DNA from: Patescibacteria group bacterium
GTDB lineage: Bacteria; Patescibacteriota; Patescibacteriia; UBA9570
Assembly: GCA_041665365.1 (NCBI GenBank)
Contig: JBAYIY010000006.1
Location: 19,602-83,601, forward strand
Reading direction: 5' to 3'
Length of the DNA stretch: 64,000 nucleotides
This document shows, piece by piece, positions 12,413-54,141 of the stretch (positions within the stretch are counted from its first letter, which is position 1; every line of letters starts with the position of its first letter). A model generated the notes under the pieces. That model worked only from the letters and a program-made list of their open reading frames with translations. It did no database searches and was not told where the DNA came from. Both the position numbers and the translations under genes were made by a program.

Positions 12413-13630
12413 TTATTCAGTTTTAGTTGATTCAATTTTTTCTACTTCTTTCTCTTCTTTTTTTTCAGCGTCTTCAGCTCGAATGATATCAATCGACCAA
12501 CCGGTTAAGCGGGAAGCTAACCGGACATTCTGACCACCCTTACCAATCGCTAAGGAGAATTGATCTTCTGGAACTTCAGCGGTGGCAATTTTTTTACCGT
12601 CTACTTCTTTCAATGAAACACTAGTAATTTTAGCTGGAGATAATGCATTGATAATAAACTTAACAGCATCGTCATCATAATGAATGATATCAATTTTTTC
12701 ACCACCAAGTTCTGTAATCACAGTTTGTACGCGGGTACCACGTTGACCAACACATGAACCAATTGGATCAATACTTGGGTCGGTTGCGGCCACGGCAATT
12801 TTGGTACGCGAACCGGCTTCACGGGCAATCGCTTTAACCACCACACTGCCGGAACCAATTTCCGGCACTTCAGCAGCAAACAAAGCCGATACTAAATTAG
12901 CATTGGAGCGTGAGGCAATAATTTCAGGCCCACGGTGCGTTTTTTCGATTGATAGTAATAATACTTTTATGCGTTGACCGGGTTTATATACTTCACTGCG
13001 CACCTGTTCGGCTGGAGGCATAACCGCCACGGCTTGACCCAGATCAACAAAAACCACTTTACCTTCCACCCGTTGAATCATAACGTTGATCACTTCGCCC
13101 ACACGATCTTGATACAACTTGAAGAGTGTTTCCCGTTCGGCTTCACGCAATTTTTGAATAATCACTTGTTTGGCTGTTTGTGCGGCCATTCGACCAAATT
13201 CAGCCGGCACTTCTACTTCATCACGAATTTCATCACCTAATTCAATATCAGCAATTTCCTCTTTCGCTTGGGTATAAGGAATATCTGTTTTAGGATTAAA
13301 GCGTTTTACCGGTTCACCTTTGTCATCTAACGCTGGAGCACTTTCTACTAAACCAGTCGTAGCGTCTTTATCTTTTTGATATTGCTCATATAAAGCATCT
13401 TCCACTACAGTGGTCACTTCAAATATACGCATCGAGCCATCATTAGGGTTAAATTCCACGCGAATGTCTTTTCCCTTCTGGCCCATCTCTTTACGGTAAG
13501 CTACCGCTAAAGCGGTTTCAATTGTTTCTACCACGGCTTCAAACGGAATGCCTTTTTCTTCGCAAATCTGTTTGATGGCCGCACCGACTTCTTTTGGATC
13601 TGGCATAAATATAGAATTGGTTAGAGACAT
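12413..13630 (-). CDS. nusA: Transcription termination/antitermination factor NusA
   Basis: 405 aa; N-terminal domain, S1 and two KH domains. Start codon lies inside a family-A palindrome. Confidence 0.9.
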   Translation of the reverse strand: MSLTNSIFMPDPKEVGAAIKQICEEKGIPFEAVVETIETALAVAYRKEMGQKGKDIRVEFNPNDGSMRIFEVTTVVEDALYEQYQKDKDATTGLVESAPALDDKGEPVKRFNPKTDIPYTQAKEEIADIELGDEIRDEVEVPAEFGRMAAQTAKQVIIQKLREAERETLFKLYQDRVGEVINVMIQRVEGKVVFVDLGQAVAVMPPAEQVRSEVYKPGQRIKVLLLSIEKTHRGPEIIASRSNANLVSALFAAEVPEIGSGSVVVKAIAREAGSRTKIAVAATDPSIDPIGSCVGQRGTRVQTVITELGGEKIDIIHYDDDAVKFIINALSPAKITSVSLKEVDGKKIATAEVPEDQFSLAIGKGGQNVRLASRLTGWSIDIIRAEDAEKKEEKEVEKIESTKTE

Positions 13631-13644
13631 GCCATGGCATGTCT
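13625..13644. repeat. Family-A palindrome, partial copy (agacatgccatggcatgtct) overlapping the nusA start codon
   Basis: 20 bp perfect palindrome identical to the core of copies at 19469, 20783, 53613 and 54114. Confidence 0.7.
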
Positions 13645-15298: not shown

Positions 15299-16135
15299 GT
15301 GACACCTATGGCGAAACGAATTGGTAAGGATCGACTCACTATCACCATGCGACAAGATGTCTTAGCTGCGCTTGATAGCTTCATTAATGGTGATACCATT
15401 CGTAATCGTTCTCAAGCCATCGAACATATCGTTGCCCGTCATCTTGGCACTGGCATTGATACTTGTGTGATTTTAGCCAGTGGCCGTGAAGATCAATCGA
15501 TCAAATGTTTAAAACGCGTGCAAAATCGGCCTGTGATTGCCTATACCATTGAGATGTTGCGTCTGGCTAACATTCACAACATCATTATGGTAATAAATAA
15601 GAAATGTCCGGATATAAAACAATATTTGGGTAACGGTTTACAATACAGAGTTAATATTCAATATATTGAAGAAGACAATCCGACTGGCACGGCACAATCG
15701 TTGCAGAAGGTAAAAGGTCTGATCGATAAAACATTTTTATTGTTATATGGTGATGTACTGGCCGATATAGATATTCAGGAATTGGTTAGATTTCATCATG
15801 ACATGGATCATATTATAATGACCCTAGCCGTGACCGCCGCCACTAATCCATCTTTGTATGGTGTGGCCGAACTACAAGGTAAACGAATTTATCGCTTAAT
15901 CGAAAAACCAACTCAACTAAAAAAGAGTAATCTCGTCGTCGCTGGTGTGGCTGTGTGTGAACCTGAACTGTTTAAAGAAATACCAGAGCATTGTGAAAAT
16001 AAATATTTAGCCCGAGACATCCTCCCAGATTTAGCCCACCGTGGACAAATTGGCGGTTATCCTTTTTCCAACAAATGGTTTGATGTGTCCCATGAGGATG
16101 AATACACCCGCGCGCAAGCGGAGTGGGTGGAATAA
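15299..16135 (+). CDS. Ribbon-helix-helix (CopG-like) domain fused to a sugar-phosphate nucleotidyltransferase domain
   Basis: N-terminus RLTITMRQDVLAALDSFI... resembles an RHH domain. The rest (ILASGREDQ..., NPTGTAQSL, LLLYGDVLADIDIQ) resembles the NTP_transferase fold. Confidence 0.55.
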   Translation: MTPMAKRIGKDRLTITMRQDVLAALDSFINGDTIRNRSQAIEHIVARHLGTGIDTCVILASGREDQSIKCLKRVQNRPVIAYTIEMLRLANIHNIIMVINKKCPDIKQYLGNGLQYRVNIQYIEEDNPTGTAQSLQKVKGLIDKTFLLLYGDVLADIDIQELVRFHHDMDHIIMTLAVTAATNPSLYGVAELQGKRIYRLIEKPTQLKKSNLVVAGVAVCEPELFKEIPEHCENKYLARDILPDLAHRGQIGGYPFSNKWFDVSHEDEYTRAQAEWVE

Positions 16136-16683
16136 AACATTTTTTTTGGATTGTTATAAATATATTGCCGGGTATAATCCAATTGCCGTGGTGTGCGAAT
16201 AATTTCATCGTAATACCGGGGTTGCCAATGGAAATATTGATCCGGTTGTTTTTTTCGAATATAAAACGTGGTGACACCTTTATACCATCGAATTATATGC
16301 GGTAACGATGTGGGATGTAACATTGGATTATTTTGTTTTGTCACCCCACCGGTTTGATGAAACCCTCTGGTAGAGACGCGATTAATCGCGTCTCTACCAG
16401 AGGGTTTCATGTACACAATCCCATGCATGTGATCCGGCATGATCACAAACGCATCCAATTGCATATGTGGAAAATGTTCCGGAATGTTTAACCAATATTG
16501 ATGGGCTGTTTCACCAATATCCGATAAACACATATAACCGTTTTTAATAAAACCAAATGGGTTTTTGTATCGCTGTTTTACGCAAATCGTAATAAAATAC
16601 CACCCCGGTGTGGCATAATTCCAACCGGTTAATCGAATTGATGGTGTAAAATACCGTTGCCTATATAACATAAAACGCCCCAT
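16057..16683 (-). CDS. IS200/IS605-like HuH-Y1 transposase (REP-associated tyrosine transposase, RAYT-like), copy 1, with in-frame palindrome insert
   Basis: YFITICV...FVIMPDHMHGIV (HuH motif) and RQYIYNNP (catalytic Tyr region). A 52 bp perfect palindrome at 16358..16409 is translated in-frame as GRDAINRVSTRGF. The C-terminal tail probably reads into the convergent gene. Confidence 0.65.
   Translation of the reverse strand: MGRFMLYRQRYFTPSIRLTGWNYATPGWYFITICVKQRYKNPFGFIKNGYMCLSDIGETAHQYWLNIPEHFPHMQLDAFVIMPDHMHGIVYMKPSGRDAINRVSTRGFHQTGGVTKQNNPMLHPTSLPHIIRWYKGVTTFYIRKKQPDQYFHWQPRYYDEIIRTPRQLDYTRQYIYNNPKKMFYSTHSACARVYSSSWDTSNHLLEKG
16358..16409. repeat. Family-A palindrome variant (TGAAACCCTCTGGTAGAGACGCGATT|AATCGCGTCTCTACCAGAGGGTTTCA), 52 bp perfect
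   Basis: Read directly; inside RAYT copy 1. Confidence 0.9.
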
Positions 16684-16773
16684 AAGGCGGCGCTTTTCAT
16701 GAACAGGTTATCACAAATAATTGGTTTACACAATGTTTGATATATAACGTAAACAATCAACCTGGTATATGAC

Positions 16774-16831
16774 GTCGACAATCATCCGGTAGAGACGCGA
16801 TTAATCGCGTCTCTACCGGATGATTGTCGAC
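16774..16831. repeat. Family-A palindrome variant, 58 bp perfect (GTCGACAATCATCCGGTAGAGACGCGATTAATCGCGTCTCTACCGGATGATTGTCGAC)
   Basis: Read directly. Followed by direct repeat ccggatgattgt. Lies at the left edge of the GC-rich island. Confidence 0.9.
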
Positions 16832-17105
16832 CGGATGATTGTTCATTTTAACGGGTGATTTTACGATTCCCCCATTCAGGTGTGACAATCCACCTGGACA
16901 ACCAAAACCAATCCCTGTACAAATGGTGGGTCTTGTTCTTTTTATCGTGGTACACCCGCATTTTTATTGATCACAATTACTGATGTGAGGTGAGTTTGGT
17001 GATGAGTGAAAGTGAGGGTGTACCCAAAAAGTTCCCCCTGCACGGTCCAGTGGGATCGTGTTTTCGTGTACAAAGAAAATCAACCTGAACAAGAAGGAAT
17101 GACAA

Positions 17106-18560
17106 GTGGCCCCCAACAACCTCCCCGTGTACGACAACGGGGATATCTTGAAGTTGACCGTCGCGGTCGACCCGAACATCGTTCGGGCTGACATGCCGGC
17201 GGTGAATCGCACGTCTGCGGAACTCAAGAACCTGGGCACGATCGTCCAGGACGCCCTGATCGAAGAGGGCAAGGAACTGGTGCAGGCCGGAATCGGCGAT
17301 GCCAACACGGAGTACACGCTCCGTGATTTGGCTGAGGCCATCAACTCGGCGGCACACCGGGATGTGCTGCCAATCTCTGGCCTCGTCACGCCGGACGCAC
17401 CGGCGTTCCACCTCGAGTACGGCGATGTTCGGGGTATCCACGCCCTGATCACTGTGCTCAAAAACTTCCTCGGCGTCCTCCTCGGCATCGAGGTTCGCGA
17501 CTACGTGACGATCACCCACGGTGGGCGCTCGGCGGTCTTTATGGCCGTCCGTTCATTCACGCAGTTCATGGTCGCTACCCTGAAGTCGATGGGCGTCGAG
17601 GGACCGCCAATGGTGGCGGTTCCAGTGGAAACCTGGGGAACCTACCCCAACATCGTCGCCCAGGCGCTGGGCGACGGGGTATTCCACCCGATCCCCTGCA
17701 GAGACGGCCTGCTCGACGCCGAAGCACTCGACGAAGCGTGCACGCGCAACCCGCGCATTCGCATGCTCATCTTCTGCAATCCGGTGAATCCGAGCGGCCG
17801 GACGTATGGATCCGATCGCATGGCGCGGATCGCCAGGATCGTGGCCAAACACAAGTTGTGCGTCCACGCCGATGACATGTACGCGATGTTTGCGTGGGTT
17901 CACCCCCATCGCAGCATCCTGCGCGCTGCCGCGGCGCTGGCGCACTCGGGTGAAAAGGAGGTTGGAGAGTGGGTCGCATCCCACACCACCCTCCTCACGG
18001 GTGTCATGAAGGCCGGGGGCTCGGGTTCCCGTGTGAACTTCATGGTCATCCCGAACGACAATCTGCGGGCTCGCTTCGTCGCGAACCAGGGCGACCTGTA
18101 CGGTCCGCCGAACATGATGGGGCAGCTGTTGCAGCTCGCCTTCATCAAGCACGGTGGGCCGGAGCGCGTCTGGCTCGAGATGAAGGAGCGGCGTGATGCC
18201 CTCCAGGCCAAGCTGACCGAGGTCGCCGGACGTATCACCGGCTGCCCGATCACCCTGACCTGGAGTGCTATGGAAGGCGGTTTCTACACCGCCATGCACC
18301 TCAACGGCATCGGTGGAATGAAGTACACCGATCGCAGCGGTACCTCCCGGGTCATCATGACGGGCGAGGATATGGCTCGGTTCCTCGTCCAGCGGGCTGG
18401 CATCGTCGCCACGCCCGATGTCGCGGCGTGCGTCGGTGACGTCACCTTCGCGCGCATCGCGTATGGCATGATGCGTCCGGAGACCGTCGAGGTTTTCGGC
18501 AACCAGTTGGCAGACGCCGTGATCGGGCTGTGCGCCGAAAACGGCCACAACCCGAAGTAG
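17106..18560 (+). CDS. PLP-dependent aminotransferase (class I/II fold) on a GC-rich, foreign-looking island
   Basis: 484 aa, GTG start with AGGA 8 nt upstream. NPSG, ADDMY and a VMKAGGSGSRVNF (SxSK..G.R.G-like) lysine motif. Codons are strongly GC3-biased, unlike the rest of the window. Confidence 0.6.
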   Translation: MAPNNLPVYDNGDILKLTVAVDPNIVRADMPAVNRTSAELKNLGTIVQDALIEEGKELVQAGIGDANTEYTLRDLAEAINSAAHRDVLPISGLVTPDAPAFHLEYGDVRGIHALITVLKNFLGVLLGIEVRDYVTITHGGRSAVFMAVRSFTQFMVATLKSMGVEGPPMVAVPVETWGTYPNIVAQALGDGVFHPIPCRDGLLDAEALDEACTRNPRIRMLIFCNPVNPSGRTYGSDRMARIARIVAKHKLCVHADDMYAMFAWVHPHRSILRAAAALAHSGEKEVGEWVASHTTLLTGVMKAGGSGSRVNFMVIPNDNLRARFVANQGDLYGPPNMMGQLLQLAFIKHGGPERVWLEMKERRDALQAKLTEVAGRITGCPITLTWSAMEGGFYTAMHLNGIGGMKYTDRSGTSRVIMTGEDMARFLVQRAGIVATPDVAACVGDVTFARIAYGMMRPETVEVFGNQLADAVIGLCAENGHNPK

Positions 18561-18792
18561 CTTCCCTAGGTTCGCCGTTGAGGTAAAAGGTGGGAAGTAC
18601 GCTCTCCCCCTGGTCACGCGCACTTGACCGCGCGAAAGTGACCACCCCAACGGCGGCCTTTGGGGAAGAACAAGACAACGAGGAGAACAAGTGTGTGTGC
18701 TATATCCAGCGGGACGTAGCACACCGAATGTTCTCCTCCCTTCAGCAATCTGTATCAATTTATTGGTACAGATTGATTAGGGAAAAAATATA

Positions 18793-18837
18793 AAAACCCG
18801 GTAGAGACGTTGTATGCAACGTCTCTACCGGGTTTTT
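18793..18837. repeat. Family-A palindrome variant (AAAAACCCGGTAGAGACGTTG-tatg-CAACGTCTCTACCGGGTTTTT)
   Basis: Read directly: 20 bp arms with a 4 nt loop. Confidence 0.85.
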
Positions 18838-18855
18838 GTGATTATTATGTGTATG

Positions 18856-18903
18856 GTCGGGGGTGAGCGCATGATGTGTGGCGCTCAAACCCCCGAACCT
18901 GTG
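18856..18903. repeat. GC-rich roughly 48 bp hairpin-forming direct repeat, copy 1
   Basis: ggtcgggggtgagcgcatgatgtgtggcgctcaaacccccgaacctgt; second copy at 19174. Confidence 0.6.
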
Positions 18904-19173
18904 TGTGATCAATATCGCTGTGATTTCGGGATCCCGTGATCTAGAACCTCGTATGACCCCCTCTCTGCAGGGGCCACTTCCTGTTGTTCCGGCAATCTCC
19001 GATAAGCGAATCCAAGAAACTCCCCATCCCAATCCCAGGGGTCAGACTCTTGATCTGAGCCGTTTTTTTCACTTTCGTTTTCAGGTTTCTTTTCAGGCAC
19101 ACAGCCTCCTTTGGCTGAGCCATATTAGTTTATAATCATAAAAAAAACAAACACCTTTGTAGGTGTTGTGATG

Positions 19174-19222
19174 TCGGCCAGGGGTGAGCGCATGCTATCT
19201 GCGCTCGAACCCCCGGCCTGTT
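19174..19222. repeat. GC-rich roughly 48 bp hairpin-forming direct repeat, copy 2
   Basis: gtcggccaggggtgagcgcatgctatctgcgctcgaacccccggcctgt. Confidence 0.6.
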
Positions 19223-19468
19223 GCTCAGCAGTAGCACGGTTCGTCGGACGTAGTCCAACGAGGTTTCACGATTTTTTCCCCGTTTTCGGCGGGAGTTTTT
19301 GCCAGCTGAATCGCCGGCTCAGTCTCCAGCCTCAGTGGGGTTTTCTCGATCTTTTTGTCGTTTTCTTTCGCCACATGTCCTCCTATGAGCTGGGGTATCG
19401 TAATAAAAAATATCATCATGTCAAACCAAAAAAGTATGATGAATGCCAAAATAATAACAATGTGTACA

Positions 19469-19514
19469 TTAAAAACAGTAGAGACATGCCATGGCATGTC
19501 TCTACTGTTTTTAA
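19469..19514. repeat. Family-A palindrome, 46 bp perfect (TTAAAAACAGTAGAGACATGCC|ATGGCATGTCTCTACTGTTTTTAA)
   Basis: Read directly. At the right edge of the GC-rich island. Confidence 0.9.
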
Positions 19515-19529
19515 TTGGGGAAGGTATGT

Positions 19530-20774
19530 CTACCCGTTGGCAATCCCCTTGGCTAACATCGCTTGTTCGATGCGTTTGGCGGCATGAATGTAGGCCGCAG
19601 TACGCATTTCACAGTTATATTTTTCTTTAATCGCCCAAATGGCATTGAACGAATCAACCATAATTGGTTCCAATTTGGCTAACACTTCTTTTTCTGACCA
19701 ATAATAATTGTAGGCATTTTGTACCTGTTCAAAGTAAGATACTGTGACACCACCGGCATTAGACAAAATATCGGGTACTAAAATGATGCCTTTCTTGGCT
19801 AAAATTTCATCGGCTTCAGGAGTGGTTGGACCATTGGCTAATTCCACAATGGCTTTACATTTCAATTGGCCAGCATTTTCTGCCAAGATTTGATTCTCCA
19901 AAGCGGCTGGTACCAAAATATCACAGGCCGTAGTTAACACTTGGGCATTGGTGACATTTTTGGCACCGGGGAAATTTTGCACACCGCCAGTTTTGGCTTT
20001 GTGTTTTTCTACAGCCACTGGGTCTAATCCTTTTTCGTTAACAATACCACCGCGGGAATCTGACAAACCAACAATCTTATAACCTTGTTTGGTTAAAATC
20101 TTCGCCATGTAAGAACCGGCATTGCCGAAACCCTGAATCACCACTGTGGAGCCTTTCTTAAATTTCATTTTTTTGGCTAGCTCTAACATGACATACACAC
20201 CCCCTTGCGCGGTAGAATAACCACGACCTGCAGAACCACCAACAGCAATTGGTTTACCAGTAATCACACCGGGCATTTGGTGACCATGTAGAGTATTAAA
20301 TTCATCAAGCATCCAAGCCATAATCTGTGGTGTGGTATACACATCTGGCGCTGGCACATCAATATCTGGACCAAGATCACCACGTAAGCCACGAATAAAG
20401 CCACGGGATAATCTTTCTAATTCACGCACCGATAATTCTTTTGGATTAACCGTCACACCACCCTTACCACCACCTAATGGAATACCGACCGTCGCACACT
20501 TAAAAGTCATCCAGAAAGCTAAGGCTTTTACTTCATTGATATCGGTATCTTGATGAAAGCGAATGCCACCTTTGTTAGGACCACGGGAATTATCATACTG
20601 TACGCGATAGCCTTCATAAACCTTAATATCGCCATTGTCCATCCGAATTGGAATAGAAAAATGAATTTCGCGCTTGGGTTGTTTCAAACGAGCATGCACA
20701 CTGGCATCCAACCCCATTAGTGTAGCGGCTTTATCGAGTTGTTTCTGCGCCGATTGAAACGGATTAACTTTCAT
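19530..20774 (-). CDS. gdhA: Glutamate dehydrogenase (NAD(P)+)
   Basis: 414 aa; KGGIRFH and GGGKGG motifs, C-terminal Rossmann GFGNAG. Confidence 0.9.
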   Translation of the reverse strand: MKVNPFQSAQKQLDKAATLMGLDASVHARLKQPKREIHFSIPIRMDNGDIKVYEGYRVQYDNSRGPNKGGIRFHQDTDINEVKALAFWMTFKCATVGIPLGGGKGGVTVNPKELSVRELERLSRGFIRGLRGDLGPDIDVPAPDVYTTPQIMAWMLDEFNTLHGHQMPGVITGKPIAVGGSAGRGYSTAQGGVYVMLELAKKMKFKKGSTVVIQGFGNAGSYMAKILTKQGYKIVGLSDSRGGIVNEKGLDPVAVEKHKAKTGGVQNFPGAKNVTNAQVLTTACDILVPAALENQILAENAGQLKCKAIVELANGPTTPEADEILAKKGIILVPDILSNAGGVTVSYFEQVQNAYNYYWSEKEVLAKLEPIMVDSFNAIWAIKEKYNCEMRTAAYIHAAKRIEQAMLAKGIANG

Positions 20775-20782
20775 AGATATTT

Positions 20783-20811
20783 GTTACAGACATGCCATGG
20801 CATGTCTTTAC
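20783..20811. repeat. Family-A palindrome, one-mismatch copy (GTTACAGACATGCCATGGCATGTCTTTAC)
   Basis: Between the aminotransferase stop and the gdh start; likely terminator hairpin. Confidence 0.8.
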
Positions 20812-20837
20812 TAATTAAAGACGCGCCTATTATATGC

Positions 20838-22031
20838 CTAGCTATTATATTCTGCAAGGGCTAATTTTATTAGTTCTAATGATCTCTTTAAAGCAGTAGT
20901 GTTTAACATGAAAGCTAACCGCACTTCTTTTTTACCTTTACCCGGAGTAGCGTAAAAACCAGCGGCTGGTGCTAATAGAACAGTTTCATTATGATCCTGG
21001 AATTCATTAATCATCCAAGCGGCAAAGTTATCGGCATCATCAATCGGTAAACCAATAATGATATAAAAAGCTCCTTCTGGTTTGGAAAAAGTGATGTTAG
21101 GAATCTTTTTTAAACCTTGGTACACCACCTCACGTCGCTTTCTAAATTCTTTAGTCATGATGCTGGTGTATTTTTTTGGATTCTGTAATAACGGTATTAA
21201 AGCCAGTTGTTCAATCGAGGCGACTGATAATCTAGCCATGCCCATTTTTAACACAGCGGCAATTACCGCTTTGTTTTTTGAAGCGACTGTCCCGACCCGC
21301 GCCCCGCACACATTAAATCGTTTTGACGCACTATCTAACACCACGGCTTGTTGCTGAATCTCTTTAAACTCCATGATCGAATAACATTTAGATTCAAAGG
21401 CAAACTCACGATAAACTTCATCCGATAAAATAAATAAACCATGCTGCTTAGCTAACTTAACTAAGCGACCTAATTCTTGTTTTGAAAAAATTGTTCCAGT
21501 CGGATTAGATGGATTACAAATCAAAATGGCTTTAGTTTTTTTAGTAATGACTTTTTTTATCTCTGCATCGGTTGGTAAGTGAAAGCCGTTTTTGATATCC
21601 AAAGTAACTGGTTTTAATGTCACATTAGCCAGCGCGGCAAAACTATTATAGTTAGTATAAAATGGTTCAAATACTATTACTTCATCACCCGGATCACAGA
21701 CTGCTTCTAAGGCAAAAATGATACCTTCTGATCCACCGGATGTAATAATAATATCTTCCGGTTCAAATGGGATATGATTCTTTTTATAATACACACTCCA
21801 GGCTTCTAAGGCTGGTTGTAAACCATTCGATGGCGCATAAGACAAAGTCGGCTCAGAGTATTGTTTGATCGCTTTAAACACATCCGGATGAGTGGGTAAA
21901 TCCGGTTGACCAATATTTAAGTGATAAACTTTGATTCCTTTTTTCTTGCGCGCCTCAGCGGCGGCGGCTAGTTTACGTAAAGGTGACGCTTGTAAGTTTG
22001 TACCACGTGTCGAAATATTTGGAATACTCAT
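20838..22031 (-). CDS. Class I/II PLP-dependent aminotransferase (aspartate/aromatic aminotransferase-like)
   Basis: 397 aa; SASKRFNVCGARVG (SxSK..G.R.G) motif. AT-rich codon usage, so native. Confidence 0.8.
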   Translation of the reverse strand: MSIPNISTRGTNLQASPLRKLAAAAEARKKKGIKVYHLNIGQPDLPTHPDVFKAIKQYSEPTLSYAPSNGLQPALEAWSVYYKKNHIPFEPEDIIITSGGSEGIIFALEAVCDPGDEVIVFEPFYTNYNSFAALANVTLKPVTLDIKNGFHLPTDAEIKKVITKKTKAILICNPSNPTGTIFSKQELGRLVKLAKQHGLFILSDEVYREFAFESKCYSIMEFKEIQQQAVVLDSASKRFNVCGARVGTVASKNKAVIAAVLKMGMARLSVASIEQLALIPLLQNPKKYTSIMTKEFRKRREVVYQGLKKIPNITFSKPEGAFYIIIGLPIDDADNFAAWMINEFQDHNETVLLAPAAGFYATPGKGKKEVRLAFMLNTTALKRSLELIKLALAEYNS

Positions 22032-22037
22032 ATTTTT

Positions 22038-23027
22038 TTATGATCTTATAAAATGTTCATTTGATGATACTTTCCAATCTTGATTAACTGACACATTCTT
22101 CCCATCTTTTGTACCTAAATATGTGTAACACGCCAAGGCGGCTTTACATCCTTCACCGGCGGATACTACTACTTGTTTACAATTACTCGTCGTCACATCT
22201 CCAGCCGCAAAAATTCCAGTTTTTGAAGTTCGACAATCTGCCGTCACAATCACTTCATGTTTTTCACTCATATCTACCAACCCATCCAAAAAATTAGTCT
22301 TAGACATAAACCCAGCGTTAATACACACTGCATCTACCACAATAGTCCGCTCAGCTTTCCCTTCTTGTTGTACAACTATGCCGGTAACATTATTTTCACC
22401 AGCAATTTGTTTTAATTGGGCATTCAATACTTGGGTGACATTTTTACATTGCGCCATGGTTTCTAACAAAACAGCTTCAGCGCGAAATTTATCCCGACGA
22501 TGAACCAAATACACTTGCTTAGCTACAGCGGCTAATACATTCACTGATTCAATGGCAGAGTTACCACCGCCAATCACCGCGACAGTTTTTCCACGTAATG
22601 TATCGACTACAGCGGCAGCACTATAAGTTACACCTTTACCAACTAGTTCCGCCTCACCCGGTACATTCAAACTACGCGGTGTTAAACCAAAGGCTAAAAT
22701 AATACTGCGTGTTTCTATTTGTTCAGTATTGTAATCTACAATAAATTTATCCTCAGCTTGTTGTGTAATTTTGTGTACTTCCCCTAACTTAAATTCTGCA
22801 CCAGATGAAACTGCTTGATCACGAAACTTTTTCATTAACTCAAAGCCATCAATGGCACCAACCCCAGGATAATTTTCTATCACCGATGTGGTGGCGGCTT
22901 GCCCACCTAGATCTTTGGAAATTATGACAGTACTTAAATTACGCCGCGCGGTATACAAAGCGGCGGTGAGCCCTGCTGGACCACCGCCGATTATTACTAC
23001 ATCATACTGTTTATCAGATGAGGCCAT
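22038..23027 (-). CDS. Thioredoxin-reductase-like FAD/NAD(P)-binding oxidoreductase lacking the CxxC redox disulfide (ferredoxin-NADP reductase type 2 / YumC-like)
   Basis: DVVIIGGGPAGLTAALY and GKTVAVIGGGNSAIE motifs. The position of CATC is replaced by AAAV (GVTYSAAAVVD). Confidence 0.65.
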   Translation of the reverse strand: MASSDKQYDVVIIGGGPAGLTAALYTARRNLSTVIISKDLGGQAATTSVIENYPGVGAIDGFELMKKFRDQAVSSGAEFKLGEVHKITQQAEDKFIVDYNTEQIETRSIILAFGLTPRSLNVPGEAELVGKGVTYSAAAVVDTLRGKTVAVIGGGNSAIESVNVLAAVAKQVYLVHRRDKFRAEAVLLETMAQCKNVTQVLNAQLKQIAGENNVTGIVVQQEGKAERTIVVDAVCINAGFMSKTNFLDGLVDMSEKHEVIVTADCRTSKTGIFAAGDVTTSNCKQVVVSAGEGCKAALACYTYLGTKDGKNVSVNQDWKVSSNEHFIRS

Positions 23028-23949
23028 CTAAAGCAGCTTTAAGATCTGCTTTTGTCTGCATCCCAATCATCTGTTGCACTGGTTTACCATTCTGGAAAAA
23101 AATTAGTGTTGGAACAGACATCACTTGATACTGCGCAGGTGTGCTTTCATTTTCATCCACTTCCATTTTACCAATCTTCACAGCCTTGCCTTTATACTCT
23201 TCGGCTAATTCCTCAATTAAAGGACCAAGCAATTTACATGGACCACACCAACTCGCCCAAAAATCAACTAGTACCGGAACGTCAGATTGCAGAACCTCCT
23301 GTTTAAAATTTGCGTCTGTAAAAGCTTGTGCCATAGAAGCAGTATATAATGCCCGTCCTAATCTTACAATAGTTGCCCCCTCGGCCACTGCTATCGACCA
23401 ATCGTCTGACATACCCATTGATAATTCAGGTAGCTTATACTGTATTTGAAGCTGCTTCATGGTTTTAAAATCCTGTCTGGTTTGTTCAGGTGACTGTTTA
23501 GCGGTAATTGTCATAAGACCGGATAGTTGGAGATGTTGGAATTGCTCGAATTGCGGGATAATGTGGGGAAGTTGTTCGAGGAGAAAACCATATTTATTAG
23601 AATCACGACTTATATTGACCTGAAGAAATACGGGCATGATTCTTTTAAGCTCACTGGCTGCCTGGTTAATAGCTTGAGCCAAGTTTAAAGTATCAACTGT
23701 TTCAATAACATCAAAAGCCTCAACGACTGGTTTAGCTTTATTAGTCTGTAAGTGTCCTATGAAGTGTTTTTCAATATTAGTAGGCAGAAATGGCAGTTTA
23801 CCTTTGGCCTCCTGCCAACGATTTTCTCCAATTAATGTTATGTCATAGTGCTTGAGGATCGATAAAATACGTTCTACAGAAATGTTTTTGGTTACGGCCA
23901 TGATTCTGTATTTATTGTGAGACTCTTTAATATGTGTAATGTTAGGCAT
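23014..23949 (-). CDS. Fusion protein: YggS-family PLP-binding domain with C-terminal thioredoxin domain
   Basis: N-terminal part (LIGENRWQE, IGHLQTNK, SMGMSDDW) matches YggS/alanine-racemase-N-terminal fold. C-terminal part (VLVDFWASWCGPCK...VPTLIFF) is a canonical thioredoxin with WCGPC. Confidence 0.65.
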   Translation of the reverse strand: MPNITHIKESHNKYRIMAVTKNISVERILSILKHYDITLIGENRWQEAKGKLPFLPTNIEKHFIGHLQTNKAKPVVEAFDVIETVDTLNLAQAINQAASELKRIMPVFLQVNISRDSNKYGFLLEQLPHIIPQFEQFQHLQLSGLMTITAKQSPEQTRQDFKTMKQLQIQYKLPELSMGMSDDWSIAVAEGATIVRLGRALYTASMAQAFTDANFKQEVLQSDVPVLVDFWASWCGPCKLLGPLIEELAEEYKGKAVKIGKMEVDENESTPAQYQVMSVPTLIFFQNGKPVQQMIGMQTKADLKAALDGLI

Positions 23950-23985
23950 TTATTTGTAATAGATATATTGAATCAATCATCGTGT

Positions 23986-24040
23986 CCATGTGTTCCATGC
24001 AGTGGACGAATAATATTCGTCCACTGCATGGAACACATGG
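23986..24040. repeat. Family-B palindrome, 55 bp perfect (CCATGTGTTCCATGCAGTGGACGAATA-A-TATTCGTCCACTGCATGGAACACATGG)
   Basis: Read directly. Immediately upstream of RAYT copy 2. Confidence 0.9.
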
Positions 24041-24115
24041 TTACACACATGCATCCACACAATTTTATCAAACATACGTTACCATATCCCCCATTATTGT
24101 TCCACGTGGAACAAT

Positions 24116-24750
24116 TTGACAGCACCGTGTTTCTACGATACATTCACCAAAGAAAAGCGCCCGCCTATTTGGGGCGTTTTTATGTATCAACCAAAAATCA
24201 GAAAACAATTACGCCTTAATGGTTATGATTATTCATCATCTGGTTGTTATTTTATTACGATTTGCACTCGTTTTATGCAACATTGGTTTGGTGAAATTAA
24301 TAATCGTAAGATGAATCTCAATACATATGGAAAAATTGCACACAACTATTGGCTCGAAATTCCAAAACATTATACAAATGTTTCAATTGATGAATTTGTC
24401 ATCATGCCGAATCACATACATGGAATCATTGTCATTAAACCGTCGGTTAACGAACGAATTGGAGGAGTGGACGAATAATATTCGTCCACTCCTCCAATTC
24501 GTTCGTCCATCAATGTTGCCCGCACATGTACATCCACAACATATAATTCCGCATCCCCGAATTACGGATTAATATCCAAAATTGTAAAATCATACAAACA
24601 TGTTGTCACACGAACAATGAAATTAACGAACTCATGTGCGCAATTTTCCTGGCAACGCTCATATTACGATGATATTATCAGAAATGACCACCATTTTAAT
24701 AATGTTCGTAAATACATCCATAACAACCCAATTAAATGGAAACATTAATT
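24116..24750 (+). pseudogene. IS200/RAYT-like HuH-Y1 transposase, copy 2, disrupted by a palindrome-borne stop and a frameshift
   Basis: N-terminal part YFITICT...FVIMPNHIHGII ends at a TAA inside the family-B palindrome 24450..24506. Homology to copy 1 continues in another frame (SMLPAHVHPQHII) and then a third frame (SKIVKSYKHVVTR...RSYYDDIIRNDHHFNNVRKYIHNNP). Confidence 0.6.
24450..24506. repeat. Family-B palindrome, 57 bp perfect (ACGAACGAATTGGAGGAGTGGACGAATA-A-TATTCGTCCACTCCTCCAATTCGTTCGT)
   Basis: Read directly. Lies at the same relative position (after the KPS motif) as the palindrome inside RAYT copy 1. Confidence 0.9.
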
Positions 24751-43573: not shown

Positions 43574-44740
43574 ATGGACATATTATTAGAAAGAGGCGTT
43601 GATACAATTTACCCATCACTAAAAAAACTCAAAGAAAAACTGGCCACTGGCGATAAACTTACCCTATATTTAGGAGTGGATCCAACCGGGGCATTATTAC
43701 ACATCGGTCATACAATACCTTTACGAAAACTAGCTCAATTTCAACAGGCGGGGCACAAAGTGATTTTATTAATGGGCGACTTTACGGCCGTTATTGGGGA
43801 TCCGACTGGGAAAGATAAAACCCGTGTTCCTCTAACATCAGGGCAGATTTTAAAAAATGCCGAAACCTATAAAGAGCAAGCCAGTAAAATTTTAGATTTT
43901 AATCACCCAATCAATCCAGTTGAAATTCGTTATAACAGTACCTGGTTGGCCAAACTTACTTTCACTGAGGTTATAAAACTGGCCGCACATTTTACCGTGC
44001 AACAAATGTTAGAACGAGACATGTTTGAACGGCGCATTAAACATGGGCAGCCCATTTCACTGCATGAGTTTTTGTATCCTTTGATGCAGGGTTATGATTC
44101 TGTGGCGATGGATGTTGATTTAGAAGTTGGTGGGACAGATCAAACGTTTAATATGTTGGCCGGAAGAACTTTACAACGCGAAATCAATCAACGGGAAAAA
44201 TTTGTTATCACCGTGCCGTTATTGGCTGATGCCAATGGAGTAAAAATCGGCAAGTCAGAAGGTAATGTGATTGCCATTACGGCTAAACCGGCCGATTTAT
44301 ATGGCAAAATTATGGCTTTAGGTGACGATGTAGTAGAACAGTGTTTTGAATTATGCACCGATCTACCCATGACTGAAATTAAACAAATTGTTCAAGGCAA
44401 TCCGAAACAAGCCAAGATGAGATTAGCTCGTGAAATTGTTACTATTTATCATTCAGCTGAAGCCGCGGCGCAAGCTGAACAGGAATTTAACACAGTGTTT
44501 TCCAAACACGGTAAACCGAGTGACATACCAAACAAATTAATTCCAAACACTACTGAGCCACCGGCGATACTTGTGGAACTAGCTCTGGCCGAAAATAAAT
44601 CTGCGGCGAAACGATTATTTGAACAAGGGGGAGTAAAAATAAATGATCAAAAAATAACCGATTGGAAAAAACCGTTAGTGTTAAAATCCGGCGATGTGAT
44701 TCAAGTTGGAAAAAGAAATTTTATCGCAGTGTACGAATAA
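43574..44740 (+). CDS. tyrS: Tyrosine--tRNA ligase
   Basis: HIGH (LHIGHTIPL) and KMSKS-like (KIGKSEG) motifs, C-terminal S4 domain. Last five codons and the stop lie in a family-B palindrome. Confidence 0.9.
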   Translation: MDILLERGVDTIYPSLKKLKEKLATGDKLTLYLGVDPTGALLHIGHTIPLRKLAQFQQAGHKVILLMGDFTAVIGDPTGKDKTRVPLTSGQILKNAETYKEQASKILDFNHPINPVEIRYNSTWLAKLTFTEVIKLAAHFTVQQMLERDMFERRIKHGQPISLHEFLYPLMQGYDSVAMDVDLEVGGTDQTFNMLAGRTLQREINQREKFVITVPLLADANGVKIGKSEGNVIAITAKPADLYGKIMALGDDVVEQCFELCTDLPMTEIKQIVQGNPKQAKMRLAREIVTIYHSAEAAAQAEQEFNTVFSKHGKPSDIPNKLIPNTTEPPAILVELALAENKSAAKRLFEQGGVKINDQKITDWKKPLVLKSGDVIQVGKRNFIAVYE

Positions 44741-44757
44741 TATTCGTACACTGCGAT
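44723..44757. repeat. Family-B palindrome, short copy (ATCGCAGTGTACGAATA-A-TATTCGTACACTGCGAT)
   Basis: Between convergent tyrS and galT; supplies the tyrS stop codon. Confidence 0.85.
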
Positions 44758-51137: not shown

Positions 51138-52650
51138 GCTTGGTCCAAGCGCAGTCTTAGGGTTAACCATTGGGCTGTTTATTTGGTATCAATCGATTCA
51201 GACTTTTCCTGACCCCGATGCGTATTATCATGCCAGACTTGCGGCTATCATGCTGCAATCTGGTCTGCCCACCACATTTCCCTGGCTGCCATTAACAACC
51301 TTATATCAACATTTTGCTGATCACCATTTACTGTATCATGTAGCCTTAATGCCCGCTGTGGCATTATTTGGTCCAATTATTGGGGTTAAATTAATGCAAG
51401 TTATATTTGCTAGTTTAGTGATAATTATTTGTTATTTTATTTTGCGCCGGTGGCATATTCCATACCAAGCCCCAGCTCTTTTGCTGTTACTTAGTAGTTA
51501 TCCCTTTCTAGTAAGGATTAATTTAGTAAAAGCTTCCGCCGTGGCGATTTGTTTATTTTTATTGATTCTATATTTTTTATTGCAAAAACGGTATGGGTTA
51601 GTAGGCATTCTAACACTAATTTACACGCTAACTCACGGTGGATTTATTTTAGCAGTGGTTTTAGCGACTGCCGTTTGGTCGGCCGACAGTATCGCCCAAA
51701 TATTTAAAGCAAAACAATATAAACCTATCTTACCAACGGGAATATTTGTTGTGTGGGCAGCCATCATTATTGGAATATTAATCAACCCATCGTTTCCAAA
51801 TAATCTGGCTTTTTTGTGGGCGCAAGTATTTCAGATTGGGGTGGTTAATTATCAGTCGGTGATCTCAGTTGGGGCGGAATGGTACCCATTTCCACTAACC
51901 GAATTAGTCGAAGCGATTAGTGTATTATTAATCGGTGTAGTGGCCACCATTCCAGTGTGGCTGAGGCAGTGGCGTAAAGTGTTAAGTGATGAAAAAGCGG
52001 TGTCTTTATTATTACTCACCCCAGTTTTTTTTATTTTAACTTTACGCTCACGCCGGTTTGTTGAATATTTTATCCCATTACTGTGGTTGTTGATTTGTTT
52101 ATTAGTGCTACCGGCTTGGCAGGCGGGCATTATTCAACCGGTTTGGCAAAGCATCACGCGCCGGCTTGGGCACTGGGCGAAGCTATTAAATATGTACATC
52201 GTAGTCACAACTATTGGTACAATCGTGATTGGTGTAATCGGGATCGGACGCAGTTTTTATCAAGCAAAACCAATTGATCGGTTTGCCCAAGCCGGTGCTT
52301 ATTTACAAAGTGTAGCCGAACCAAATGAAATAGTATTTCATGGGCGGTGGGATGACTTTCCGGCGCTATTTTATTATGCACCGAAAGCGTCATACATGGC
52401 TGGGCTTGATCCAACTTTCCTGTATTTAGCTGATAAAAATTTATATCAACACTGGAATGATATTGCCACGGGCAGGGCTAAACAACAAACGGCTAGTAAC
52501 ATCCGTGATTATTTTCAAGTGCGCTATGTTGTGGTAGATGAATCTGATTCACATACGCAATTAATGTTAGCTTATTTGTTGCGTGATAAAACCGCCAAGC
52601 TAGTTTTTCATCAGAAACCAATGGCAATTTTTAAATTAGTTGAATTATGA
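51121..52650 (+). CDS. Polytopic membrane protein, GT-C-fold glycosyltransferase-like (paralog 1)
   Basis: About 12 TM helices with a C-terminal soluble domain. First extracytoplasmic loop FPDPDAYYH (DxD-like). Shares blocks (RINLVKA, THGGFIL, FPNNL, AEWYPF, DDFPAL, GLDPTFLYLA) with the next gene. Confidence 0.4.
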   Translation: MRWLNKLGPSAVLGLTIGLFIWYQSIQTFPDPDAYYHARLAAIMLQSGLPTTFPWLPLTTLYQHFADHHLLYHVALMPAVALFGPIIGVKLMQVIFASLVIIICYFILRRWHIPYQAPALLLLLSSYPFLVRINLVKASAVAICLFLLILYFLLQKRYGLVGILTLIYTLTHGGFILAVVLATAVWSADSIAQIFKAKQYKPILPTGIFVVWAAIIIGILINPSFPNNLAFLWAQVFQIGVVNYQSVISVGAEWYPFPLTELVEAISVLLIGVVATIPVWLRQWRKVLSDEKAVSLLLLTPVFFILTLRSRRFVEYFIPLLWLLICLLVLPAWQAGIIQPVWQSITRRLGHWAKLLNMYIVVTTIGTIVIGVIGIGRSFYQAKPIDRFAQAGAYLQSVAEPNEIVFHGRWDDFPALFYYAPKASYMAGLDPTFLYLADKNLYQHWNDIATGRAKQQTASNIRDYFQVRYVVVDESDSHTQLMLAYLLRDKTAKLVFHQKPMAIFKLVEL

Positions 52651-54077
52651 AATGGTATGTGTGGCTGAGCATTGTGCTGCTGGCACTTGGTTTGTGCAGC
52701 TTACAAGGCACAGTTGTTTTTCCTGATCCAGATGCGTTTTACCATGTTGGCGTGGCCCAACATTTATGGGAGTTTGGCTTTGCTAAAACATTTTCCGGAT
52801 TGCAACCCACTACTTTAGGGCAACACTTTGTCGATCAGCATTTCTTATTACATTTTACCCTAGCACCATTTGTGTGGATGATGAGCCCTGGAGTTGGCAC
52901 CAAAGTATATATGGTAGTTGTAGTATTAGTCTGTTTAAGTGTCATGTCTTACATGCTATATTGGATCAAAGCACAGACTTGGTGGGTTGGAGTTATGCTT
53001 TTGGTAGCAACTAACGCCTGGTTATTTCGTATAAATTTAGTAAAGGCCACGCCGTTGGCTTTGATTTTGTTATTTTTATCACTGCTAGCTTTACAAACAA
53101 AAAAATATAAATGGTTACTGCTAATAGGTGGTCTCTATGTCTGGACACACGGTGGGTTTATTTTATTGCCCATTCTAGTTGGAGTTTGGAGCCTGTTAGC
53201 CAAACAATGGAAACCGGTCGCGTATGTATTATGTGGAATCAGTGTGGCTATTTTAGTCCACCCAGCCTTTCCAAATAATCTATTATTTTATTGGGAACAA
53301 CTTGTTCAAATCGGCGCAGTTAATTATCAAACTGTGATTGGGGTAGGAGGAGAGTGGTATCCCTATGAACCCGGTTCATTAGTATTTGGTCATACTATAA
53401 TTTTTTCCATTCTAATAATTAGTCTTGTCCTGCATGTCTTACAAAGACGTCCGTTTACTGTGGCGCAAATATGTTTTTCTATTTACACCGTAATATTTTT
53501 CATTCTCACATTAAAATCCAAAAGATACGTGGAATATTTTTCACCCATGTTAGCCTGCACAGCGGCATTGTATGTGCCAACGGTGATAAAATCAAAAGTA
53601 GAGACACACAATAAAGTAGAGACACGCCATGGCATGTCTCTACTTTTGATTCCCACGGCAATTATGATTGTTGTCCTGGTACCGGTTGTAATTCAAGAAA
53701 TTATTACCGCAAAAACTGATTTGCAATCTGGCCAAGCGTTAACCTATTTACATGGAGCCGGAGAATTTTTAGATACTTTACCACCAGGGCAAGTCGTTGC
53801 CCCCAGTGATTGGGATGATTTTCCAGCTCTGTGGCGAGCCGCACCACACCAACAATTTTTAATTGGATTAGATCCGACTTTTCTATATCTGGCTAATCCT
53901 ACTCGTTATGAAGCTTGGCGCGCCCTCACCTTAGGTGAAGACAATGATGTTGATACAGTAGGGGCAGATTATTATGTGGTAGCCAAAGACCATAAATCTA
54001 TGCATAAACATTTGGTAAAAATTGATGCCGTGACGGTTTATGAAGACGATGAGGCTTGGGTGTTAACAACCCCATAA
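52647..54077 (+). CDS. Polytopic membrane protein, GT-C-fold glycosyltransferase-like (paralog 2), with in-frame palindrome-encoded insert
   Basis: Same conserved blocks as paralog 1. Residues KSKVETHNKVETRHGMSLLLIP are encoded by a family-A palindrome at 53594..53648. Confidence 0.4.
   Translation: MKWYVWLSIVLLALGLCSLQGTVVFPDPDAFYHVGVAQHLWEFGFAKTFSGLQPTTLGQHFVDQHFLLHFTLAPFVWMMSPGVGTKVYMVVVVLVCLSVMSYMLYWIKAQTWWVGVMLLVATNAWLFRINLVKATPLALILLFLSLLALQTKKYKWLLLIGGLYVWTHGGFILLPILVGVWSLLAKQWKPVAYVLCGISVAILVHPAFPNNLLFYWEQLVQIGAVNYQTVIGVGGEWYPYEPGSLVFGHTIIFSILIISLVLHVLQRRPFTVAQICFSIYTVIFFILTLKSKRYVEYFSPMLACTAALYVPTVIKSKVETHNKVETRHGMSLLLIPTAIMIVVLVPVVIQEIITAKTDLQSGQALTYLHGAGEFLDTLPPGQVVAPSDWDDFPALWRAAPHQQFLIGLDPTFLYLANPTRYEAWRALTLGEDNDVDTVGADYYVVAKDHKSMHKHLVKIDAVTVYEDDEAWVLTTP
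53594..53648. repeat. Family-A palindrome (one mismatch) with partial tandem duplication, inserted in-frame in a CDS
   Basis: aaagtagagacaca + aaagtagagacacgccatggcatgtctctacttt. Confidence 0.85.
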
Positions 54078-54111: not shown

Positions 54112-54113
54112 TG

Positions 54114-54141
54114 TAGAGACATGCCATGGCATGTCTCTACT
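54114..54141. repeat. Family-A palindrome, 28 bp perfect core (GTAGAGACATGCCATGGCATGTCTCTAC)
   Basis: Read directly; between convergent genes. Confidence 0.9.

Follow-up and report, generated by a model that had tools for sequence, protein, structure and literature searches.

In a 64,000-nucleotide (nt) window from a Patescibacteria group bacterium (GenBank assembly GCA_041665365.1, contig JBAYIY010000006.1, positions 19,602 to 83,601 of the forward strand), two genes, here called copy 1 and copy 2, probably encode paralogous REP-associated tyrosine transposases (RAYTs) of TnpA(REP) subclass 2.4 (Bertels Group 4), and the palindromes around and inside them are their cognate double-foot repetitive extragenic palindromic elements (REPs). 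A hairpin inside the transposase gene is an already described hallmark of this subclass, since in-gene REPs were described for it previously (Quentin, Siguier, Chandler, Fichant, 2018, BMC Genomics 19:475; PMC6006769), and it is rediscovered here in a new host lineage. An apex stop codon, palindromes with extended arms and a leader hairpin shared by both copies go beyond that description.

Two Y1/HuH transposase genes had been proposed in a preliminary description of the window, and profile matches of copy 1 and of both halves of copy 2 bear this out. Copy 1 is intact; translation probably begins with ATG 16671, from which a protein of 204 amino acids (aa) is read that is 100% identical to NCBI protein P0001 ('MAG: transposase [Patescibacteria group bacterium]'; MAG, metagenome-assembled genome). 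It matched Pfam Y1_Tnp with 30.4 bits (cut-off 23) and carries the motifs PDHMH (HuH), HWQ and YIYNNP. Copy 2, in which PNHIH (HuH), SWQ and YIHNNP were found, extends from ATG 24182 to a stop at 24746-24748, and each of its halves matched the NCBIfam model REP_Tyr_transpos. A further frameshift had been claimed for copy 2, but translation of three frames yielded a single reading frame with one internal TAA as the sole defect. With the TAA codon masked, 97-99% of its length could be aligned to relatives, and all invariant residues are kept on both sides of this codon. The two proteins are ~37-46% identical to each other. A second assembly (ENA, ERZ27249449) matched 20.3 kb of the window exactly, and a search with a profile built from relatives detected no third RAYT copy in the window.

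The AlphaFold2 model of copy 1 had a mean predicted local distance difference test (pLDDT) score of 74, with values >90 across most of the core. The top PDB match in Foldseek was 4er8_A (E = 2e-7), a structure of E. coli TnpA(REP) in complex with a REP hairpin (PMC3479197), and the next structural matches were the ISDra2, IS200 and IS608 transposases. In a PDB profile search 4er8_A was the only match. Copy 1 has ~31 residues more than the NCBIfam profile, and the residues encoded by its in-gene REP (96-113) were modelled as a loop with pLDDT <50, placed between the HuH strand (85-92) and the next helix. At its 3' end, copy 1 overlaps by 79 nt (16057-16135) with a convergent nucleoside triphosphate (NTP)-transferase gene (15299-16135). 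The last ~20 residues of copy 1 are antisense to that gene; as they also have pLDDT <50 and stand where relatives end in W..D, the native C-terminus was probably lost.

Subclass 2.4 enzymes are characterized by the HuH motif NH[IFV]H, by WQ and YIxNNP, by a length of ~194 aa and by a variable insert between beta3 and alphaC that was modelled as a peripheral extension; their REPs are of the double-foot type and occur as in-frame insertions within tnpAREP, between HuH and Y (PMC6006769). Both copies have WQ and YIxNNP and a similar length (about 190-200 aa), the PNHIH of copy 2 fits the HuH consensus, and residues 96-113 of copy 1 form a beta3-alphaC insert that holds an in-frame REP. A double-foot REP is a palindrome of 20-40 nt with GT[AG]G at the 5' and C[TC]AC at the 3' end, and all four REP families of the window (A-D) have this form. 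Each RAYT gene has a cognate-type REP with a GT[AG]G foot 90-140 nt upstream, as in a REPtron. This flanking is one-sided: on the downstream side lie the overlapping NTP-transferase gene (copy 1) and a tRNA-Ala gene (copy 2). The closest named relatives belong to Cyanobacteria, Bacteroidota and 'various phyla', which fits the description of subclass 2.4, and Group 4 was reported to be common in Cyanobacteria and spread across 17 classes (Bertels et al., 2017; PMC5581495). In the supplement of PMC6006769, REPs with the sequences GTAGAGACGCGAT... and GTAGAGACGTTGCAT[AG]CAACGTCTCTAC are given for Calothrix, Flavobacterium, Cyanothece and another species, and a REP listed there for subclass 2.4 differs from that of family D solely in the 4-nt loop. 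The family-B and family-C cores are absent from this supplementary list. The earlier RAYT and REP calls were right.

Within both genes the REP lies in the loop after the HuH strand. The palindrome in copy 1 reads through in frame, as had been noted before. Its 28-nt double-foot core GTAGAGACGCGATTAATCGCGTCTCTAC (16370-16397) encodes GRDAINRVST and is flanked by 13-nt arms derived from local sequence. The RNA fold of this palindrome has -47.5 kcal/mol (z = -14), and the in-gene hairpins of both copies reach ~-48 kcal/mol each. It was likewise correct that the palindrome in copy 2 brings in a stop codon: the third base of the TAA is the central base of the 57-nt palindrome. Since everything but this apex TAA is intact, copy 2 is read as a gene that was inactivated recently. 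The odd-length family-B palindrome gives TAA (stop) in one orientation and TAT (Tyr) in the other. The preliminary description had placed both palindromes at the same internal position directly after a shared KPS motif. This holds for the loop, but the core starts one codon after KPS in copy 1 and six codons after it in copy 2, and the two cores differ in codon phase and in sequence.

As listed in Table 1, the window contains 11-12 REPs, which fall into four sequence families and of which all intact copies have the form GT[AG]G...C[TC]AC. Family A (core GTAGAGACGCGATTAATCGCGTCTCTAC, 28 nt) has two sites, family B (core GTGGACGAATAATATTCGTCCAC, 23 nt, GTGGAC...GTCCAC) two sites and one variant, family C (core GTAGAGACATGCCATGGCATGTCTCTAC, 28 nt) about five sites and family D (core GTAGAGACGTTGTATGCAACGTCTCTAC, 28 nt) one site. 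Families A, C and D share the ends GTAGAGAC...GTCTCTAC. No match to the family-A or family-B cores was obtained in any of 100 shuffles of the window. The palindrome upstream of copy 2, which is perfect, had been given in the earlier account, in which the family-A REP upstream of copy 1 had been missed. Most of the REPs are intergenic or terminator-like. In seven of nine intact REPs of the window the perfect palindrome continues for 6-17 nt into locus-specific flanks, an arm extension that was seen in 16 of 130 copies elsewhere (Fisher p = 4e-5 versus the window). The extended arms are A-tracts and T-tracts at the intergenic REPs, which for this reason look like bidirectional terminators, and coding sequence at both in-gene REPs. 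Two REPs are also part of other genes. The stop codon of tyrS (43574-44740) is the apex TAA (44738-44740) of the family-B variant (the protein ends in ...IAVYE), and a family-C REP with a half copy (KVETHNKVETRHGMSLL) lies in frame in an open reading frame (ORF) for a 476-aa multi-pass membrane protein, for which no NCBIfam match was found.

Table 1. Positions of the RAYT genes, leader hairpins and REPs in the 64-kb window.
Feature	Position	Strand	Remarks
RAYT copy 1, intact	16057-16683	-	208-aa ORF; profile matches
Family-A REP inside copy 1	16357-16410		perfect 54-nt palindrome
Leader hairpin, copy 1	16672-16697	-	terminator-like; abuts start codon; AAAAGCGCC..GGGCGTTTT
Family-A REP upstream of copy 1	16774-16831		perfect 58-nt palindrome; 28-nt core 16789-16816
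RAYT copy 2	24182-24748	+	single reading frame; one internal TAA at 24476-24478
Family-B REP inside copy 2	24450-24506		perfect 57-nt palindrome; core 24467-24489
Leader hairpin, copy 2	24153-24180	+	terminator-like; abuts start codon; stem arms AAAAGCGCC, GGGCGTTTT as in copy 1
Family-B REP upstream of copy 2	23986-24040		perfect 55-nt palindrome; core 24002-24024 GTGGACGAATAATATTCGTCCAC
Partial family-C copy	13625-13644		
Family-D REP	18792-18837		core 18801-18828 GTAGAGACGTTGTATGCAACGTCTCTAC; A-tract and T-tract arms
Family-C REP	19468-19515		core 19478-19505 GTAGAGACATGCCATGGCATGTCTCTAC; 10-nt A/T arms
Degenerate family-C copy	20778-20817		
Family-B variant REP	44723-44757		between convergent genes
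Family-C REP and half copy	53598-53643		in frame in 476-aa ORF 52647-54077
Family-C REP	54113-54140		just past terminator of ORF 52647-54077

Both RAYT genes are preceded by a leader hairpin with the same stem arms (~-14 kcal/mol). It stops 1-2 nt short of the ATG, and its 3' arm includes a GGGG that could serve as ribosome-binding site. The hairpin AAAAGCGCC..GGGCGTTTT was found neither elsewhere in the window nor in 124 other loci. Work by Beuzon et al. in 1999 is said to have found that IS200 tnpA is repressed by a terminator-like hairpin together with a stem that sequesters the ribosome-binding site. Both copies resemble the IS200 leader in having a terminator-like GC stem and T-run just before the start codon and a G-rich 3' arm, and their leader hairpin may act as an IS200-style transcriptional or translational block. 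Unlike IS200, these RAYT genes have neither element ends nor multiple identical copies, and the likeness of the leaders is one of structure.

The distribution of the family-A core was analyzed in a scan of one genome per species, in which the counts refer to the matches listed. At least 120 genome stretches contained the exact 28-mer, and their hosts represent at least nine phylum-level groups. The hosts among these matches include Cyanobacteria, Bacteroidota, several Patescibacteria lineages, Gammaproteobacteria (Methylococcales/Crenothrix), Spirochaetia, Myxococcota, Abditibacteria (Abditibacteriaceae), FCPU426 and Altimarinota, and the matched genomes include complete ones from isolates. 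Of 127 copies, only 12 lie in or beside a RAYT ORF. As 47 of 130 copies are located within ORFs of at least 150 aa, with both the GRDAINRVST and the VETRLIASL frame in use, the family-A REP is often tolerated in coding sequence across phyla. These ORFs, the longest of which has 1292 aa, are not related to RAYT. In the cyanobacterium Myxacorys the identical 28-mer occurs once, within the RAYT gene, and in Larkinella rosea it occurs five times in and around the RAYT gene, with both sequence variants found inside and outside of it.

In aligned relatives from Cyanobacteria, Bacteroidota, Omnitrophota, Patescibacteria and other phyla, GRDAINRVST stands at the equivalent place, in some of them as two copies or as tandem half-copies. 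The peptide was nearly invariant in the first alignment, as would be expected if its conservation were of the usual protein-motif kind and the palindrome in the DNA a coincidence. This reading is refuted, and its remaining probability is practically negligible. Across phyla, even the synonymous sites of the DNA are identical at a protein identity of only ~45-50%, the same DNA occurs in intergenic positions and in the other open frame (VETRLIASL), and the segment was modelled as a low-confidence loop. The near-invariance itself was inflated by the search: the first homolog list had been seeded on shared 5-residue words and therefore over-represents the motif, so the 85 of 120 entries with RDAINRVST were discounted, and RDAINRV was present in 17 of the 150 best representatives of an exhaustive search. 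According to the preliminary description, conservation of the segment in subfamily members from genomes free of the palindromes would refute its reading. Conserved across the subfamily it is, but those genomes also carry the palindrome as a dispersed repeat, and the GRDAINRVST segment is therefore REP DNA. With few copies near RAYT genes and many in other ORFs in both frames, the family-A core is, to judge from its sequence context, a dispersed mobile repeat.

The exhaustive HMMER search covered 1.84 billion cluster representatives and returned 18,950 relatives at an E of 1e-3 or better. REP peptides in them were scored by explicit REP-foot peptide patterns; these replaced a generic scan for palindrome-encodable peptides, which did not separate real from shuffled proteins. 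Among the best 150 of the 18,950 relatives, 56 (37%) had a GTAG-foot REP peptide in the gene, including those of family C (VETCHGMSL) and family D (VETLHATSL), and 58 of 59 such peptides were placed between HuH and WQ, 8-64 residues past HuH. Copy 2 belongs to a second clade, in which SKIxKSYK takes the place of the IIRWYKG of the copy-1 clade. In this clade VGTE[QH]CSVPT is frequent in the same loop, and some members are without any insert. In the nearest relative of copy 2, this loop holds a different double-foot REP (GTAGGGACAGAGCAATGCTCTGTCCCTAC, encoding VGTEQCSVPT), whose codon phase equals that of family B in copy 2. The exact family-B core was found at only two metagenome sites, neither of them near a RAYT gene, and these sites thus provide no second pairing of family B with a RAYT.

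The RAYT linkers of some relatives hold several REP copies. In a Saprospiraceae MAG (L101, 2380-3008) the linker is made up of tandem CCGGATGTATT repeats that surround a family-A REP whose arms are 18 nt long; an array of REP copies in decay comes next. This is a case of extreme linker instability. The linker of a RAYT from a Patescibacteria MAG (P0047; L128, 1780-1885) contains ~2.5 family-A REPs, namely a half, a degenerate and an intact copy, as would fit recurrent insertion or slippage in the loop. In Candidatus Opimibacter the family-A core is found with the fixed arms GTTTCAAAA...TTTTGAAAC at several loci (L070, 4965 and 6776; L102, 102 and 1969), and since these arms recur, the mobile unit is longer than 28 nt in some genomes.

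The preliminary description had offered two readings of the in-gene hairpins, a self-targeting hotspot and a regulatory hairpin native to the RAYT lineage. According to the former, the RAYT gene would hold a specific REP insertion target, for instance around the KPS codons. The confinement of nearly all REP peptides (58/59) to one loop and the position of KPS just ahead of the palindrome in both copies would fit such a target. However, the distance between HuH and REP varies from 8 to 64 residues, KPS is not common to the other relatives, the flanks of 130 copies of the 28-mer show just a weak T...A bias, and REPs lie in frame in unrelated ORFs too. The insertion sites sampled point to the absence of a shared target motif. 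A sequence-specific hotspot is therefore not supported by the variable distance and the missing flank conservation, and we consider it improbable. The notion of a hairpin native to the RAYT lineage is nearer to the truth, as REP peptides occupy the loop in 56 of the 150 closest representatives. In a regulatory role, such a hairpin would be kept by selection to throttle RAYT expression by ribosome stalling, RNase III cleavage or binding of the RAYT, as a perfect stem of 25-27 bp in the mRNA or in single-stranded DNA. It and the leader hairpin would then be two layers of one repression system. This is suggested by a frequency of in-gene REPs far above that of chance insertion, by the extension of both in-gene copies to hairpins of ~-48 kcal/mol and by the terminator-like, GGGG-holding hairpin that abuts the start codon of both genes. 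Against it stand the majority of close relatives, which have no in-gene REP, and the in-gene REPs of other genomes, which are bare cores with a 12-bp stem and no arms. Moreover, the in-gene sequence always equals the dispersed REP of the respective genome, as a by-product of REP mobility would. Selection as a regulator is thus unlikely, but it has a somewhat better standing than the hotspot.

Several observations also weigh against the assignment of the two genes to subclass 2.4 and of the palindromes to their cognate REPs. The match of copy 1 to REP_Tyr_transpos reached 46 bits and stayed under the model cut-off of 80, and its HuH motif is DHMH instead of NH[IFV]H; D in place of N at this position was also found in the relatives P0004, P0008, P0010, P0013, P0022, P0043 and P0116. 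Only two family-A and three family-B copies are present within 64 kb. No recognisable in-gene REP was detected in 94 of the 150 best representatives, and an in-gene REP is therefore a common but not an obligatory feature. If a REP of 28 or 23 nt had simply been inserted, neither the preserved frame nor the perfect arms of 13-17 nt made of local sequence would be accounted for. To our knowledge no subclass 2.4 enzyme has been biochemically studied to date, and REP binding and cleavage in this subclass are therefore proposed by analogy.

By analogy with E. coli TnpA(REP), the RAYT would bind the folded single-stranded REP, cut it and rejoin it (PMC3479197, PMC8266576). As the enzyme presumably acts locally, REP copies would gather within the RAYT gene and in its surroundings, and selection would leave as survivors only those REPs that are in the insertion-tolerant loop and in an open frame. 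In copy 2, the phase and orientation of the REP would have put the TAA at the apex and thereby caused the recent inactivation. The extended arms are best explained by intrastrand template switching on the folded palindrome, which would yield hairpins of 25-27 bp. This is the weakest step of the proposed mechanism; it is favored over insertion into a pre-existing hairpin because the in-gene arms are coding sequence. A more speculative extension, to which we give little probability, is that the in-RAYT REP serves as the heritable master copy of a self-contained unit of RAYT and substrate. If this were true, the in-gene master hairpin would guarantee co-transfer and re-seed the REP population after horizontal transfer, and the presence of one identical 28-nt palindrome in at least nine phylum-level groups, with proteins that are only ~45-50% identical, would be explained. 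The apex base of copy 2 might in addition be an on/off toggle, as TAA and TAT differ by a mere flip of the palindrome.

Compared with known systems, the locus is most similar to subclass 2.4, with which it shares the WQ and YIxNNP motifs, the approximate length and the insert described above, double-foot REPs that flank the gene and lie in frame inside it, GTAGAGAC-foot sequences and a patchy occurrence across many phyla. It differs from the published account in its host from the Patescibacteria (candidate phyla radiation, CPR), a group not mentioned in the text of PMC6006769, in the DHMH of copy 1, in the apex stop codon of one in-gene REP, in palindromes of 54-58 nt with locus-specific arms and in the unlisted family-B and family-C cores. 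E. coli TnpA(REP) in the REPtron (4ER8) has the same HuH/Y1 fold and was the best structural and sequence match; there, too, the substrate is presumed to be a GTAG-tagged REP hairpin, and the RAYT gene lies beside its own REPs. It is, however, a member of subclass 2.2 (DHLH, WE, YIHYNP) with an HuH-to-W spacing about half as long, and its REPs, none of which lies inside the gene, are single-foot, imperfect palindromes that contain a bulge. IS200/IS605 TnpA (subclass 1.1; Y[IV]ENQ, DH[VI]H, multiple near-identical copies with subterminal end hairpins) was rejected, as the Y motif here is YIxNNP and the two copies share only ~37-46% protein identity; the NCBIfam model transpos_IS200 scored 19.9 bits (cut-off 55). 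Rickettsia palindromic elements are in-frame palindromic insertions of ~100-150 bp in coding sequence without an associated RAYT. The REPs of the window resemble them in that a short palindrome is tolerated in frame in surface loops, here also in the ORF of a membrane protein and at the end of tyrS. They differ in their smaller size, in the presence of a RAYT and in their unrelated sequence. REP insertions in unrelated genes are also cited in PMC6006769. A full-text literature search for DAINRVST, ETRLIASL and the family-A DNA core returned nothing relevant.

A pyridoxal phosphate (PLP)-aminotransferase gene (17106-18560, + strand) with 61-65% GC is located between REPs in this genome of 41% GC. 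In a related contig (L127) the same pair of a low-GC NTP-transferase gene and a high-GC aminotransferase gene was found with neither RAYT nor REP, and the window sequence is identical in the second assembly. The aminotransferase gene was rejected both as RAYT cargo and as an assembly chimera. A distant homolog of the aminotransferase is encoded in a non-ribosomal peptide synthetase (NRPS) cluster of 67% GC (L126). The aminotransferase gene looks like an older horizontal acquisition that has not ameliorated, and copy 1 will have reached this spot later. Between the family-D and the family-C REP, in a region of ~53% GC, two 26-nt stretches (GGGGTGAGCGCATG...; 18855-18880 and 19176-19201) are 81% identical and 321 nt apart. 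They have no Rfam match; in the Rfam search of the window only tRNAs were matched.

Subclass 2.4 and REPs with the GTAGAGAC foot are herewith extended to a small CPR/Patescibacteria genome. A small and well-defined RAYT/REP pair of this kind is a reasonable test case for biochemistry, as subclass 2.4 enzymes have yet to be studied in this way. The locus shows two paralogs that are each paired with their own REP type, and it documents different effects of REPs on genes: the truncation of a RAYT, the supply of the stop codon of tyrS and an in-frame stay in a membrane protein. Finally, the occurrence of one exact 28-nt REP in at least nine phylum-level groups is unusual for REPs.

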